Below are positions 1,751 through 7,613 of a stretch of DNA of 16,505 nucleotides, piece by piece. Location of the stretch: the IMG/VR virus record IMGVR_UViG_2609459834_000006, positions 1 through 16,505 of that record, one strand, 5' to 3'. Positions within the stretch are counted from its first letter, which is position 1. Every line of letters begins with the position of its first letter. The notes under the pieces were generated by a model. That model searched no databases and had not been told where the DNA came from. It saw only the letters and a list, made by a program, of their open reading frames with translations. Source of the DNA: a virus (lineage: Duplodnaviria > Heunggongvirae > Uroviricota > Caudoviricetes). Both the position numbers and the translations under genes were made by a program.

Positions 1751-3004
1751 ATGCTGGAACAAATGGGCATTGCCGCGAAGCAAGCCTCGTATAAATTAGC
1801 GCAACTCTCCAGCCGCGAAAAAAATCGCGTGCTGGAAAAAATCGCCGATGAACTGGAAGCACAAAGCGAAATCATCCTCAACGCTAACGCCCAGGATGTT
1901 GCTGACGCGCGAGCCAATGGCCTTAGCGAAGCGATGCTTGACCGTCTGGCACTGACGCCCGCACGGCTGAAAGGCATTGCCGACGATGTACGTCAGGTGT
2001 GCAACCTCGCCGATCCGGTGGGGCAGGTAATCGATGGCGGCGTACTGGACAGCGGCCTGCGTCTTGAGCGTCGTCGCGTACCGCTGGGGGTTATTGGCGT
2101 GATTTATGAAGCGCGCCCGAACGTGACGGTTGATGTCGCTTCGCTGTGCCTGAAAACCGGTAATGCGGTGATCCTGCGCGGTGGCAAAGAAACGTGTCGC
2201 ACTAACGCTGCAACGGTGGCGGTGATTCAGGATGCCCTGAAATCCTGCGGCTTACCGGCGGGGGCCGTGCAGGCGATTGATAATCCTGACCGTGCGCTGG
2301 TCAGTGAAATGCTGCGTATGGATAAATACATCGACATGCTGATCCCGCGTGGTGGCGCTGGTTTGCATAAACTGTGCCGTGAACAGTCGACAATCCCGGT
2401 GATCACAGGTGGTATAGGCGTATGCCATATTTACGTTGATGAAAGTGTAGAGATCGCTGAAGCATTAAAAGTGATCGTCAACGCGAAAACTCAGCGTCCG
2501 AGCACATGTAATACGGTTGAAACGTTGCTGGTGAATAAAAACATCGCCGATAGCTTCCTGCCCGCATTAAGCAAACAAATGGCGGAAAGCGGCGTGACAT
2601 TACACGCAGATGCAGCTGCACTGGCGCAGTTGCAGGCAGGCCCTGCGAAGGTGGTTGCTGTTAAAGCCGAAGAGTATGACGATGAGTTTCTGTCATTAGA
2701 TTTGAACGTCAAAATCGTCAGCGATCTTGACGATGCCATCGCCCATATTCGTGAACACGGCACACAACACTCCGATGCGATCCTGACCCGCGATATGCGC
2801 AACGCCCAGCGTTTTGTTAACGAAGTGGATTCGTCCGCTGTTTACGTTAACGCCTCTACGCGTTTTACCGACGGCGGCCAGTTTGGTCTGGGTGCGGAAG
2901 TGGCGGTAAGCACACAAAAACTCCACGCGCGTGGCCCAATGGGGCTGGAAGCACTGACCACTTACAAGTGGATCGGCATTGGTGATTACACCATTCGTGC
3001 GTAA
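1751..3004 (+). CDS. proA: Gamma-glutamyl phosphate reductase (glutamate-5-semialdehyde dehydrogenase), 417 aa
   Basis: [38 protein letters not shown]... is full length and typical ProA. It starts 12 nt after the proB stop with GGAG upstream. Confidence 0.95.
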
Positions 3005-3118: not shown

Positions 3119-3194
3119 GCCGATATAGCTCAGTTGGTAGAGCAGCGCATTCGTAATGCGAAGGTCGTAGGTTCGACTCCTATTATCGGCACCA
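3119..3194 (+). tRNA. thrW: tRNA-Thr (anticodon CGU), 76 nt with encoded CCA
   Basis: GCCGATATAGCTCAGTTGGTAGAGCAGCGCATTCGTAATGCGAAGGTCGTAGGTTCGACTCCTATTATCGGCACCA: acceptor stem GCCGATA/TATCGGC, D-loop AGCTCAGTTGGTAGAGC, anticodon loop with CGT, T-loop GGTTCGACTCC. Confidence 0.95.
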
Positions 3195-3208: not shown

Positions 3209-4372
3209 TTACACATCATTAGTACCTTCCTTATTTTTTGACTGGGACAAATTTGGGACCGATGGGTTCAGGATCGAGTCTATTTGCCGTGCGTGTTCGG
3301 TAAGGTGATTAGGTGCAAGGTGAGCATATCGACGAACCATTTCGATAGACTCCCAGCCTCCCATTTCCTGTAACACTGACAACGGGACTCCGGCTTGAAC
3401 CAGCCAACTTGCCCAGGTGTGTCTCAAGTCGTGAAATCTGAAATCATCAATACCAGCCCGTCTCAGCGCCGCTTTCCAGGCTGTGTTTGCGTCATACCGC
3501 ATCTTCCTTACTGTTGGCGCTTTCGTTCCGTCTGGTTTGGTACAGCTTTCCTTGTACACAAATACCCAACGGTGATGATTCCCGATTTGTTTTTTCAATA
3601 CGCGACATGCAGTATCATTCAGCGCAACGCCAATTGCGCGGTTTGATTTACTCTCTTCCGGGTTTATCCATGCCACCCGGCGCTGCATATCTATTTGTTG
3701 CCATTCAAGGTTGATGATGTTCGAGCGTCTTAAGCCTGTTGCCAGTGCAAATTCAACAACAGACTTTAATGGCTCCGGACATTCATCAATCAGCCTTTGT
3801 GCTTCATGGGGCTCCAGCCAGCGGATCCGTTTATTCTTTGGTTGAGGCACTTTAATAATTGGTGCCTTATCCAGCATTTTCCATTCACGCTCTGCGGCTC
3901 TTAGTAGGGCCTTTATAAATGAAAGATGCGTAGCCTTCGTTGCAACGGACGCTGGTTTTGGCGTGTATTCTGGAACAGGTTTCCCTTTTTTTCTGCATGC
4001 TTCTGCCCTGAGTTTCCAGTTTTCCTCATGACGCCGGTTCGTCATTTTCTGCATTGCTGAATAAATTTTTGATTCAGTGATGTCTCTTAGTTGCATCCCT
4101 GCGAAATGTTGAAGCCAGAATCCGATCCGGCTTTTGTCATCGTCCAGTGATTTCTTATGTGCTTTCTCTTCGAGCCACCTGACACACGCTTCCTCAAACG
4201 TCATATCAGGTATTTCACCAAGTTTGCTGACCCGCCATGCTTCAGCCTTTAGCTTGTCATGGAGCTCTGTCGCCTGCCTTTTGTCCTTTGTTCCAAGAGA
4301 CTGTTTAAATCTTTTACCGTTCGGCAATGTGAAACTGGCGTACCATATTTCACTTCTGCGGAAGAGTGACAT
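3209..4372 (-). CDS. int: Phage integrase, tyrosine recombinase (P22 Int-like), 387 aa
   Basis: [46 protein letters not shown]... with C-terminal catalytic region [10 protein letters not shown]...VRRYAHL (R..H..R..Y). It sits immediately 3' of the tRNA, a classic attL arrangement. Confidence 0.93.
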
Positions 4373-4599
4373 TTTCTTTCCTCTGTTATGCCATCACCCG
4401 CGTTCACCTGGACAGTATGCAGCGGAGACTGAAGCGCCGCAATGCAGGCTTGCCGTGTTGTGAGGTAAGGAGATTTTGGCTTGGTTGGATCTTTACGTGT
4501 TGCCTGTAGGCGGCCTGTTCGTATCCAGTTGGTGGCGGTTGGTCTGGATATCTTAAGAAACTGACAGGCCTCATCGAGTGTGAGGCTGTATGATTCCAT
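4249..4599 (-). CDS. xis: Excisionase (P22 Xis-like), 116 aa
   Basis: [38 protein letters not shown]... from the ATG at 4599, with GAGG about 7 nt upstream. Its 3' end overlaps the int 5' end by about 124 nt. The track's longer ORF begins at an upstream GTG. Confidence 0.85.
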
Positions 4600-4897
4600 G
4601 GTTACCTCTGCTTTTTGAACGCATGTCACGTAACTTCTTAATGTGTTCTGCCGTTTCGATCTCTTCTGCTATCCGATCTGCATCAGCTTTATTCACAGGT
4701 TCAAAGTCATGATTAAAGCGGAACATGCTGGCGATACATGTTCTGCCTTTTCGGATGTAGTGAACTTTGTTGTGGGTAGAACGCAGGATTTTGCAGGGAG
4801 TGCCGTGGTGGTCGACGTACCAGGTGTTAGGAAAAATGATTCTGAACATTTTTACACCCCAGTTGGACGATGTTGAAATTTGCTGCTTTGAGGCCAT
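4571..4897 (-). CDS. Hypothetical phage early protein, about 108 aa
   Basis: ORF MASKQQISTSSNWGVKMFRIIFPNTWYVDHHGTPCKILRSTHNKVHYIRKGRTCIASMFRFNHDFEPVNKADADRIAEEIETAEHIKKLRDMR.... Its ATG at 4895-4897 overlaps the stop of the upstream zinc-finger gene (TGATG), with GGGGA upstream. No family recognised. Confidence 0.6.
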   Translation of the reverse strand: MASKQQISTSSNWGVKMFRIIFPNTWYVDHHGTPCKILRSTHNKVHYIRKGRTCIASMFRFNHDFEPVNKADADRIAEEIETAEHIKKLRDMRSKSRGNHGIIQPHTR

Positions 4898-5115
4898 CAC
4901 AGTCCCCATTGTTTGTTCTTAAGTTCGATCTCCTCCTGGCAACTTGCACAAGTCCGACAACCCTGAACAGCTAGGCGTCTTCGCTCATCTATCGGATCGC
5001 CACACTCACAACAATGAGTTGCGGATACAGTCTGGTAGTTCAGACGACGCATTTTTATTGCTGTATTGCGCTGTAATTCTTCGATTTCTGATGCTGAATC
5101 AATGATGTCTGCCAT
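4897..5115 (-). CDS. TraR/DksA-family C4 zinc-finger protein, 72 aa
   Basis: MADIIDSASEIEELQRNTAIKMRRLNYQTVSATHCCECGDPIDERRRLAVQGCRTCASCQEEIELKNKQWGL: CxxC-x15-CxxC with an acidic/coiled N-terminus, typical of phage TraR-like proteins. Confidence 0.8.
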   Translation of the reverse strand: MADIIDSASEIEELQRNTAIKMRRLNYQTVSATHCCECGDPIDERRRLAVQGCRTCASCQEEIELKNKQWGL

Positions 5116-5164
5116 CTTTCATTAATCCCTGAATTGTTGGTTAATACGCTTGAGGGTAAATGCG

Positions 5165-5191
5165 AATAATAAAAAAGGAGCCTGTAGCTCC
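5165..5191 (-). terminator. Candidate rho-independent terminator (minus strand)
   Basis: Minus strand reads GGAGC-TACAG-GCTCC followed by TTTTTTATTATT (plus coordinates: stem 5177-5181/5187-5191, A-run 5165-5176). It lies just downstream of the ORF ending at 5214. Confidence 0.55.
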
Positions 5192-5213
5192 CTGATGATT
5201 TTGCTTTTCATGT

Positions 5214-5495
5214 TCATCGTTCCTTAAAGACGCCGTTCAACATGCCGATCGCCAGGCTTAAATGAGTCGGTGTGAATCCCATCAGCGTTACCGTTTCGCG
5301 GTGCTTCTTTAGTACGCTACGGCAAATGTCATCGACGTTTTTATCCGGAAACTGCTGTCTGGCTTTTTTGATTTCAGAATTAGCCTGACGGGCAATGCTG
5401 CGAAGGGCGTTTTCTTGCTGAGGTGTCACTGAACAAGCCCCATGCCGGCAAGCATAAGCACACAGAATATGAAGCCCGCTGCCAGAAAAATGCAT
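5214..5495 (-). CDS. Hypothetical small phage protein; start uncertain (93 aa from ATG 5495, or 71 aa from GTG 5429)
   Basis: Track ORF MHFSGSGLHILCAYACRHGACSVTPQQENALRSIARQANSEIKKARQQFPDKNVDDICRSVLKKHRETVTLMGFTPTHLSLAIGMLNGVFKER. No SD precedes ATG 5495, and the N-terminal 22 codons overlap an alternative-frame hydrophobic mini-ORF (see findings). Confidence 0.55.
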   Translation of the reverse strand: MHFSGSGLHILCAYACRHGACSVTPQQENALRSIARQANSEIKKARQQFPDKNVDDICRSVLKKHRETVTLMGFTPTHLSLAIGMLNGVFKER

Positions 5496-5505
5496 TCAGT
5501 GGTTG

Positions 5506-5697
5506 TCATACCTGGTCTCTCTCATCTGCTTCTGCTTTCGCCACCATCATTTCCAGCTTTTGTGAAAGGGATGTGGCTAACGTATGAAATTCTTCGTCTG
5601 TTTCTACTGGTATTGGCACAAACCTGACTCCAATTTGAGCAAGGCTATGTGCCATCTCAATACTCGTTCTTAACTCAACAGGAGATGCTTTGTGCAT
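5506..5697 (-). CDS. Hypothetical small phage protein, 63 aa
   Basis: [63 protein letters not shown], with a strong RBS (GGGAGG) 6-8 nt upstream of the ATG at 5697. Confidence 0.75.
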   Translation of the reverse strand: MHKASPVELRTSIEMAHSLAQIGVRFVPIPVETDEEFHTLATSLSQKLEMMVAKAEADERDQV

Positions 5698-5852
5698 ACC
5701 GCCTCCCGTTTATTATTTATCTTCTCAGCCAGCCGCTGTGCTTTCAGTGGATTTCTGATAACAGAAAGGCCGGGAAATACCCAGCCTCGCTTTGTAATGG
5801 AGTAGACGAAAGTGATCGCGCCTACCCGGATATTATCGCGAGGATGCTTCAT
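5670..5852 (-). CDS. Hypothetical small phage protein, about 60 aa, translationally coupled to exo
   Basis: [60 protein letters not shown]. The ATG at 5850-5852 overlaps the exo stop (ATGA). The track's alternative start is at 5858. Confidence 0.65.
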
Positions 5853-6529
5853 CGCCATTGCTCCCCAAATACAAAACCAATTTCAGCCAGTGCCTCGTCC
5901 ATTTTTTCGATGAACTCCGGCACCATCTCGTCAAAATTCGCCATGTACTTTTCATCCCGCTCAACCACGACATAATGCAGGCCTTCACGCTTCATGCGCG
6001 GGTCATAGTTGGCAAAGTACCAGGCATCTTTTCGCGTCACCCACATGCTGTACTGCACCTGGGCCATGTAAGCCGACTTTATGGCCTCGAAACCACCGAG
6101 CCGGAACTTCATGAAATCCCGGGAGGTAAACGGGCATTTCAGCTCAAGGCCATTGCCGTCACTGCATAAACCATCGGGAGAGCAGGCGGTGCGCATACTT
6201 TCGTCGCGATAGATGATCGGGGATTCAATAACATTTACGCCGGAAGTGAACTCAAACAGGGTTCTGGCGTCGTTCTCGTACTGTTTTCCCCAGGCCAGCG
6301 CTTTAGCGTTAACTTCCGGAGCCACACCGGTGCAAACCTCGGCAAGCAGGGTGTGGAAGTAGGACATTTTCATGTCAGGCCACTTCTTTCCTGATCGGGG
6401 CTTTGCTATCACGTTGTGAACTTCTGAAGCGGTGATGACGCCGAGCCGTAATTTGTGCCATGCATCATCCCCCTGTTCGACAGCTCTCACGTCGATCCCG
6501 GTACGCTGCAGTATAATGTCCGGTGTCAT
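5849..6529 (-). CDS. exo: Lambda-type exonuclease (Red alpha), 226 aa
   Basis: [65 protein letters not shown]... is near-identical to lambda Exo as recalled; 4-nt overlap with bet. Confidence 0.95.
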
Positions 6530-7311
6530 GCTGCCACCTTCTGCTCAGTGGCTTTCTGTTTCAGGAATCCAAGAGCTTTCACTGCTTCGGCCTGTGTCAG
6601 TTCTGACGATGCGCGAATGTCGCGGCGAAATATCTGGGAACAGAGCGGCAATAAGTCGTCATCCCATGTTTTATCCAGGGCAATCAGCAGAGTGTTAATC
6701 TCCTGCATGGTTTCATCGTTAACCGGAGTGATGTCGCGTTCCGGCTGACGTTCTGCAGTGTATGCGGTATTTTCGACAATGCGCTCGGCTTCATCCTTGT
6801 CATAGATACCAGCAAATCCGAAGGCGAGACGGGCACACTGAATCATGGCTTTATGTCGTAACATCCGTTTGGGATGCGACTGCCACGGCCCCGTGATTTC
6901 TCTGCCTTCGCGGGTTTTGAATGGTTCGCGGCGGCATTCATCCATCCACTCGGTAACGCAGATCGGATGATTGCGGTCTTTGCGGTAAATCCGGCATGTG
7001 CAGGATTCATTGTCCTGCTCAAAGTCCATGCCATCAAACTGCTGGTTTTCATTGATGATGCGGGACCAGCCATCAACGCCCACCACCGGAACGATGCCGT
7101 TCTGCTTGTCAGGGAAGGCGTAAATTTCTTTCGTCCACGGATTAAGGCCGTACTGGTTGGCGACGATCAACAATGCGATGAACTGCGCATCGCTGGCATC
7201 ACCTTTAAATGCCGTCTGGCGAAGAGTGGTGATCAGTTCCTGTGGGTCGACAGAATCCATGCCGACACGTTCAGCCAGCTTCCCAGCCAGCGTTGCGAGT
7301 GCTGTACTCAT
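6526..7311 (-). CDS. bet: Lambda-type single-strand annealing protein (Red beta), 261 aa
   Basis: [89 protein letters not shown]... matches lambda Bet. Confidence 0.95.
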
Positions 7312-7316
7312 CCGTT

Positions 7317-7613
7317 TTATACCTCTGAATCAATATCAACCTGGTGGTGAGCAATGGTTTCAACCATGTACCGGATGTGTTCTGCCATGCGCTCCTGAAA
7401 CTCAACATCGTCATCGAACGCACGGGTAATGGCTTTTTTGCTGACCCCGTGGCGTTGCAAATGATCGATGCATAGCGATTCAAACAGGTGCTGGGGCAGG
7501 CCTTTTTCCATGTCGTCTGCCAGTTCTGCCTCTTTCTCTTCACGGGCGATCTGCTGGTAGTGACGCGCCCAGCTCTGAGCCTCAAGACGATCCTGAATGT
7601 AATAAGCGTTCAT
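7317..7613 (-). CDS. gam: Gam (RecBCD inhibitor), short 98-aa GamS form
   Basis: [98 protein letters not shown] matches lambda Gam. The frame is closed upstream of this ATG, so no long GamL form. Confidence 0.93.

Follow-up and report, generated by a model that had tools for sequence, protein, structure and literature searches.

What is encoded between the recombination gene exo and the excisionase gene xis of a lambdoid prophage, and are these small genes really of unknown function? The question was raised by a 16,505-nucleotide (nt) stretch of tailed-phage DNA (IMG/VR record IMGVR_UViG_2609459834_000006), referred to here over its whole length as the window, in which an initial annotation had described a cluster of five small open reading frames (ORFs) as candidate anti-defence or host-modulation factors. 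With a probability of about 90%, the cluster is the accessory block known as the exo-xis region, carried by a lambda-like prophage with its insertion site at tRNA-Thr(CGU) beside proA. Its genes are not unknown, and an anti-defence role is very unlikely; the block has been described and named before, and the finding is real but ordinary.

Within the window lies the left arm of this prophage, with the gene order exo, orf60a, orf63, orf61, orf73, DUF4222 gene, xis, int and tRNA-Thr. The genes exo (5849-6529, -) and xis (4249-4599, -) enclose five protein-coding ORFs of the minus strand, the strand transcribed from pL, and the initial placement of these ORFs on the int-xis strand of a lambdoid early-left operon was correct. 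The upstream boundary of the block, exo, encodes a lambda exonuclease of 226 amino acids (aa), 98% identical to lambda Exo and called “lambda exonuclease family protein” in RefSeq, while the downstream boundary, xis, encodes an HTH_17-type excisionase of 116 aa (phrog_2907 excisionase, E = 2.3e-52; Pfam HTH_17). The 1.6 kb spanning the block are 99.9% identical to annotated Escherichia coli chromosomes; the block DNA was found in 4331 of 5426 complete E. coli genomes and also in 284 phage records, many Shiga toxin (Stx)-converting phages among them. The exo-xis region of phages lambda and phi24B is placed likewise, flanked by exo and xis and on the pL strand. The supposed cluster of unknown function consists of orf60a, orf63, orf61 and orf73 of this named region, collinear with their lambda and phi24B counterparts and 87-100% identical to them at the protein level (tblastn). 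Nor is the zinc-finger protein the only one with a recognisable family, as had been stated. Hidden Markov model searches, proposed at the time as a check, assigned four of the five ORFs to Pfam families (DUF1317, DUF1382 and DUF4222 pass the Pfam cut-offs besides the zinc finger) and the fifth, a 71-aa protein, to phrog_303.

The gene boundaries were revised by start corrections drawn from family profiles, RefSeq annotation and homologue alignments. Within the reported size range of 60-108 aa, the 60 aa of orf60a stand, whereas orf61 comes to 71 aa instead of 93 and the DUF4222 protein to 92 aa instead of 108 or 112. The stop-start overlaps described before were likewise retained in part: the one between the TraR-type gene and the DUF4222 gene disappears, leaving a gap of 47 nt, whereas overlaps occur between exo and orf60a (ATGA), orf60a and orf63 (28 nt, at the 3' end of orf60a) and the DUF4222 gene and xis (29 nt, at the xis start). 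Sequence variation was evaluated by counting synonymous and non-synonymous variable sites, and the ratio of non-synonymous to synonymous polymorphism (pN/pS), for each frame in an alignment of 104 related loci; all such values given below refer to it.

The orf60a homologue (5670-5852, -) starts at the ATG overlapping the exo stop codon, in agreement with RefSeq; an in-frame upstream ATG at 5858 would give 62 aa. The protein matches Pfam DUF1317 over the full profile (E = 2e-36, 124.1 bits against a cut-off of 22.3; residues 3-62 of the 62-aa form) and is 92% identical to lambda Orf60a, and the gene has a pN/pS of about 0.32 with third-position bias. The next gene, orf63 (5506-5697, -), encodes a 63-aa protein matching DUF1382 over the full profile length (E = 7.7e-31, 106.4 bits, cut-off 27). 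It also matches PDB 8DSB, the nuclear magnetic resonance dimer of lambda Orf63 (E = 7.4e-33), with 58 of 62 residues identical (94%) and four substitutions relative to lambda (S6P, I24V, A42T and N61D). Given this identity, the protein of this prophage should share the dimeric alpha-beta-alpha fold and its hydrophobic cleft; Orf63 would act as a dimeric protein-protein adaptor. Sequence searches of the PDB with Orf60a, Orf61 and the DUF4222 protein returned nothing meaningful.

A separate scan of genome contigs for diverged copies of Orf63 yielded 19 loci, most of them 94% identical, which is the value for lambda Orf63, and added no diversity. Lambda-type Orf63 was seen in assemblies labelled Shewanella, Pseudomonas, Bradyrhizobium, Paenibacillus, Kitasatospora and others; four such copies lie on contigs of ~48.4-48.5 kb, and the contigs often have low coverage. 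Because the identity equals that of lambda Orf63 and contigs of this length occur in non-enteric assemblies, the copies look like contamination with lambda control DNA.

The zinc-finger gene of the block is orf73 (4897-5115, -), which encodes a TraR-type C4 zinc-finger protein of 72 aa. Its earlier assignment to the TraR/DksA family is borne out by Pfam zf-dskA_traR (E = 2.8e-9, 37.3 bits, cut-off 24.9) and phrog_54 (E = 3.6e-26). The protein shares 62 of 72 residues with lambda Orf73 (86-87%) and is 87% identical to the phi24B protein. It aligns end-to-end with the 73-aa lambda Orf73 and over the full length with the 73-aa TraR of the F plasmid (5W1S/6N57), and represents the short single-helix form lacking the DksA coiled coil. 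Its characteristic features are (i) an N-terminal DxxDxA motif, DIIDSA, at residues 3-8, a motif which reaches the active-site region of RNA polymerase (PMC9239242); (ii) a zinc finger C35-x2-C38-x17-C56-x2-C59 (CxxC-17-CxxC, residues 35-59); (iii) the pair R46 R47, placed by a phmmer alignment to 5W1S opposite TraR R48 and R49, which contact the rim helices and beta'-Si3; (iv) the same six cysteines as in lambda Orf73, including the two extra ones typical of that protein. The DxxDxA motif, the CxxC-17-CxxC finger and the RR pair have been shown to matter (PMC9239242). The 10 of 72 residues that differ between lambda Orf73 and the 72-aa protein fall mostly in the C-terminal helix (EEIELKNKQWGL vs EDLELISKQRGSK), which in TraR is the part contacting beta-Si1. 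The gene has a pN/pS of about 0.16 with third-position bias.

Lambda Orf73 binds RNA polymerase without binding DNA; it occupies the secondary channel and inhibits ribosomal RNA (rRNA) and ribosomal protein (r-protein) promoters without guanosine tetraphosphate (ppGpp) (PMC9239242). It also slows host growth and raises the burst size about four-fold (PMC9239242). Since DIIDSA, the CxxC-17-CxxC finger, the RR pair and the extra cysteines are all kept, the same RNA polymerase activity is expected of the 72-aa protein. By analogy with lambda Orf73, the Orf73 of this prophage would bind RNA polymerase and inhibit rRNA and r-protein promoters.

The window carries an intact orf61-type gene (5214-5429, -) with a GTG start, encoding 71 aa. 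The longest ORF at this place, 93 aa and reaching to 5495, probably over-extends the N-terminus, and the true product is almost certainly the 71-aa protein from the GTG at 5429. This start is indicated by several lines of evidence: the 71-aa protein matches phrog_303 with E = 4.7e-36, the RefSeq call is 216 nt long, and base 5429 is G or A among the aligned loci, so that the codon is always GTG or ATG (GTG here, ATG in lambda and phi24B). The alignments of homologues with 29-47% identity from phages of Klebsiella, Yersinia, Vibrio and Enterobacter begin at residue 1. This position is the annotated start of the coding sequence in two of three fetched loci (Klebsiella ST15-VIM1phi2.1 and Yersinia vB_YenM_210.17), the orf61-like gene of the third, Klebsiella phage 2 LV-2017, being without annotation. 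With 14 synonymous and 3 non-synonymous sites, a pN/pS of 0.06 and third-position bias, the gene is strongly constrained, and its product is 99% identical to the phi24B protein.

In published work it is remarked that lambda Orf61 “appears to be truncated”. Comparison of window positions 5214-5429 with positions 3340-3525 of the fetched lambda locus (NC_001416) revealed an extra A in the lambda reference allele, A7 where the window and phi24B have A6, leading to a truncated protein. The same frameshift is common to HK630 and O276, and many wild lambda-like phages keep the intact 71-aa gene. As judged from these alleles, the orf61 of the lambda reference is the intact gene with a +1 A frameshift, which is a small new point.

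The AlphaFold2 model of Orf61 consists of three helices, with a predicted local distance difference test score (pLDDT) of 87, and the published model of phi24B Orf61 has a homeodomain-like DNA-binding fold. ZapA, the NCBI name of many Orf61-like proteins, was rejected: the Pfam match scores 16.1 bits against a cut-off of 23.8 and covers 33 residues only. In prophages of Klebsiella, Yersinia and Salmonella, diverged orf61-like genes (31-47% identity) immediately follow a DNA methyltransferase gene. In the Klebsiella and Salmonella prophages the orf61-like gene also stands just upstream of a TraR-type gene, and the linkage of orf61 with the TraR-type gene therefore predates the E. coli lambdoid block.

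Two apparently intergenic gaps of the block are filled by micro-ORFs, chained to their neighbours through ATGA and GTGA overlaps. The first (5426-5509, -) encodes a 27-aa hydrophobic peptide, MTTTECIFLAAGFIFCVLMLAGMGLVQ, and is found in lambda and phi24B too. Its ATG overlaps the orf63 stop codon (ATGA) and its own stop overlaps the GTG start of orf61 (GTGA). The frame holds 8 synonymous against 4 non-synonymous changes, 8 of the 12 at codon position 3 (p = 0.019), with a pN/pS of 0.15, whereas the competing frame, the N-terminal extension of the 93-aa ORF, has 2 synonymous and 4 non-synonymous changes and lacks a coding signature. The peptide is strongly hydrophobic (2.49 in a 19-residue Kyte-Doolittle window) and appears in databases only occasionally, as “hypothetical protein” in few GenBank records. 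At the level of sequence, the 27-aa ORF thus shows a coding signature, a second small new point.

The second micro-ORF (5122-5217, -), encoding the 31-aa peptide MNMKSKIIRELQAPFLLFAFTLKRINQQFRD, is 100% identical in lambda and is shared with phi24B. Its ATG overlaps the orf61 stop codon (ATGA), it ends 6 nt before the orf73 ATG, and it has a hairpin inside. With 4 synonymous against 7 non-synonymous sites, one indel and start-codon variants, constraint at the protein level is weak. Ribosome profiling of lambda, as cited in PMC8614690, includes a 31-aa peptide in the conserved block (“orf2313”), which may be the product of the ORF at 5122-5217. The frame test of both micro-ORFs rests on few sites, as the phage copies are too alike: in a distant blastn search with the orf63-orf61 junction, matches covering most of the query were all at least ~94% identical, with three partial matches at 80-90%. 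The four-base overlaps running from exo through orf73 suggest translational coupling. The ATGA and GTGA overlaps would couple translation along the chain, and the micro-ORFs would at least deliver ribosomes to orf61 and orf73.

Two terminator-like hairpins accompany these genes, both corresponding to predicted elements of PMC4195576 and both likewise predicted, together with promoter p1, in lambda and phi24B. The hairpin inside orf60a (5766-5788, -) is the published predicted t1, for which the same sequence is listed in lambda and phi24B (PMC4195576). The published predicted t2 (5167-5193, -; PMC4195576) is the hairpin inside the 31-aa ORF. A terminator-like hairpin had been claimed at 5165-5191, and a stem-loop (5175-5193) with a T run is present at 5167-5193: the stem has 8 pairs and a 3-nt loop and is followed by T6, the T run continuing down to 5167. 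The sequence is identical to the ARNold-predicted t2 of PMC4195576, where the predicted promoter p1 (-35 TCATCA, -10 TTTTATTAT) overlaps t2 and lambda genes downstream of t2 have lower mRNA levels. The stem has one variable site (5192) in the aligned loci and the T run varies in length. The region has no excess of terminator-like sites (5, compared with 2.5 +/- 1.6 after shuffling), and an Rfam scan of positions 4200-6200 gave no match; the hairpin call is based on identity with the published predicted terminator and not on statistics. The predicted t2 would lower transcription of orf73, the DUF4222 gene, xis and int, unless antitermination or a ribosome on the 31-aa ORF prevents it. The predicted effect is probably partial, because t2 sits in a translatable ORF and in an N-antiterminated operon.

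The last gene of the block (4571-4849, -) sets the window apart from lambda and phi24B: a single DUF4222 gene, overlapping a different, HTH_17-type xis, stands in place of lambda ea22, ea8.5 and orf55. The protein matches Pfam DUF4222 over the full profile length (E = 3.1e-19, 68.7 bits, cut-off 27). The matches to this profile and to phrog_285 both start at the internal Met (4849), and 28 of 31 aligned homologues start with MFR, two having longer N-termini and one being truncated; the product is therefore 92 aa long and the gene directly follows orf73 after the 47-nt gap. In a profile search of 1.84 billion representatives only 47 relatives were obtained, all but one of them small (43-171 aa), and none offered an informative domain fusion. 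The DUF4222 family is narrow and belongs to enterobacterial prophages, where the gene usually lies at or near xis. Among 84 related loci carrying a TraR-type gene, 22 show the DUF4222 arrangement; both DUF4222 and this xis type are missing from 51.

An AlphaFold2 model based on a 32-sequence alignment (pLDDT 84.6) comprises a small beta-barrel and a long helix, and DUF4222 models as a Tudor/SH3-like barrel plus helix, a third small new point. The five-stranded barrel is superposable on the C-terminal Tudor domain (CTD) of UvrD/PcrA and on the RNA polymerase interaction domain (RID) of CarD. There is no sequence similarity to these domains (2-11% identity), and unlike them DUF4222 is a stand-alone 92-aa phage protein with an added 28-residue C-terminal helix. 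A viral fold search in BFVD found only uncharacterised small barrels.

The position of this gene next to xis allows it to be read as part of the integration/excision module, e.g. as an accessory of Xis or Int, instead of a member of the host-modulation block. This reading is doubtful. It accords with the 29-nt overlap with the xis start, with the location of family members, which adjoin xis or lie close to it in phi24B (vb_24B_1c, 36% identical) and in Salmonella, there with one small gene in between, and with this xis type in 17 of the 22 related DUF4222 loci; five loci, however, combine DUF4222 with a different xis and another five carry this xis but lack DUF4222, the protein showed no recognisable DNA-binding motif, and the literature does not address DUF4222. 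In another reading the protein would be a second RNA-polymerase-targeting factor, its modelled barrel docking on the beta-subunit lobe like the UvrD/PcrA CTD and CarD and the protein acting with Orf73, which is distinctly unlikely. The confident model and the location of the gene immediately after the TraR-like gene, both here and in a Salmonella prophage, point in this direction, but the identity to the Tudor-type matches is very low (2-11%), and the phi24B family member lies next to xis, far from orf73. The joint proposal that DUF4222 is a Tudor-like RNA-polymerase-binding partner of Orf73 and that the 27-aa ORF is a translated membrane peptide would be improbable.

What is published on the homologous genes of lambda and phi24B is in line with the initial suggestion of host-modulation factors. 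The region is transcribed from pL and translated early after induction, and expression of the exo-xis genes in lambda was confirmed by ribosome profiling, as cited in PMC8614690 and PMC9239242. The genes are dispensable for plaque formation and non-essential by CRISPR interference (PMC10695390), and have proved pro-lytic or pro-lysogenic in phenotypic assays (PMC6213356, PMC5575149, PMC10789677). As a whole, the region favours lytic development and alters the expression of host chaperone and metabolic genes, and deletions of orf60a, orf61 and orf63 affect lysogenisation and induction. In this prophage the block would belong to the leftward early (pL) transcription unit as a tightly packed chain of small proteins.

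The suggestion of anti-defence functions, in contrast, found no support: there was no relevant match in Pfam, PHROG or PADLOC and no link in the literature, which is absence of evidence and not refutation. No anti-defence annotation appeared among the small proteins in these three collections, no dedicated anti-defence library having been used. In PADLOC, which holds defence models and not anti-defence models, the TraR-like protein gave one marginal match (E = 0.0072, 13.7 bits) and the other small proteins none. That at least one small protein inhibits a host restriction or abortive-infection system, as do Gam and Ral upstream in the operon, is very unlikely, even though the genes are early, non-essential and in a mosaic accessory location, and the diverged orf61-like genes right after DNA methyltransferase genes occupy a typical anti-restriction neighbourhood. 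In the literature collection searched, no paper linked exo-xis with anti-defence terms; the phenotypes on record, namely a lysis/lysogeny bias, altered chaperone and metabolic genes and effects on the cell cycle, come from laboratory hosts and can be explained without a defence system; a different target has been demonstrated for Orf73; and the block DNA is ~94-100% conserved across lambdoid phages, unlike fast-diversifying anti-defence loci. That some ORFs are open only by chance, within conserved DNA that is non-coding or regulatory, as the start-codon and frameshift variants of the weakly constrained 31-aa ORF, the unsupported extra N-terminal codons (22 in the 93-aa ORF, 20 in the 112-aa ORF) and the orf63 pN/pS might suggest, is scarcely credible, since the five main genes match Pfam or PHROG far above threshold and have homologues at 29-66% identity in other genera, the Orf63 structure is solved, the AlphaFold2 models are confident, and confirmation by lambda ribosome profiling is cited in PMC8614690.

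Several observations weigh against reading the block as an exo-xis region of the lambda type. The fifth member of the conserved exo-xis core, ea22 (PMC8614690), is not present between orf73 and xis. Unlike its neighbours, orf63 has a pN/pS of about 0.55 (8 synonymous against 16 non-synonymous sites) and no third-position bias, and is either under relaxed constraint or a diversifying protein. Start-codon and frameshift variants indicate that the 31-aa peptide may not matter. Termination at t2 is a prediction, and the local fold z-score of t2 is only -1.56, which is not unusual. Reports from two laboratories conflict over the effect of Orf73 on phage yield, an increase or a decrease. All functional statements on this prophage are transferred by analogy from lambda and phi24B homologues.

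The genes surrounding the block agree with a prophage left arm. On the host side lie proA (1751-3004, +) and the tRNA-Thr (CGU) gene (3119-3194, +; ARAGORN, RefSeq), the attachment site next to proA, followed by a tyrosine integrase gene (3209-4372, -; ORF list and RefSeq annotation of the 99.9%-identical E. coli locus). Upstream of exo are bet (6526-7311, -) and gam (7317-7613, -). An overlapping pair encoding a DUF3037 protein (8404-9246, -) and a HipA_2-like kinase (9228-9980, -) separates the recombination/kil side from the cI-like repressor. The pair has PADLOC hits to the candidate defence system PDC-M66B/PDC-M66A (E = 3.6e-16 and 5.8e-15) and is probably prophage-borne defence cargo, where lambda carries rexAB/sieB. 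The positions of cro and cII are taken by YdaS-type (10894-11124, +) and YdaT-type (11194-11733, +) genes, adjoining an S24-peptidase repressor (10100-10855, -); this YdaS/YdaT arrangement is that of Rac-like immunity regions rather than lambda's. Downstream of the replication genes O and P, a 250-aa DUF4145 protein (14026-14778, +) had no PADLOC match.

The exo-xis region influences the induction of Stx prophages and thereby toxin release, a subject of active literature to which the window contributes another copy; here too the block would reprogram the host and tune phage development. The added value is modest and lies in annotation: the 71-aa orf61 with its GTG or ATG start, the frameshifted lambda allele, and the 27-aa ORF in the orf63-orf61 gap. 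Should the 27-aa peptide be real, the published “93-aa Orf61” used in modelling and deletions would correspond to the 27-aa peptide plus the 71-aa protein, in different frames. The Tudor/SH3-like model of DUF4222, in turn, suggests a testable link to RNA polymerase.

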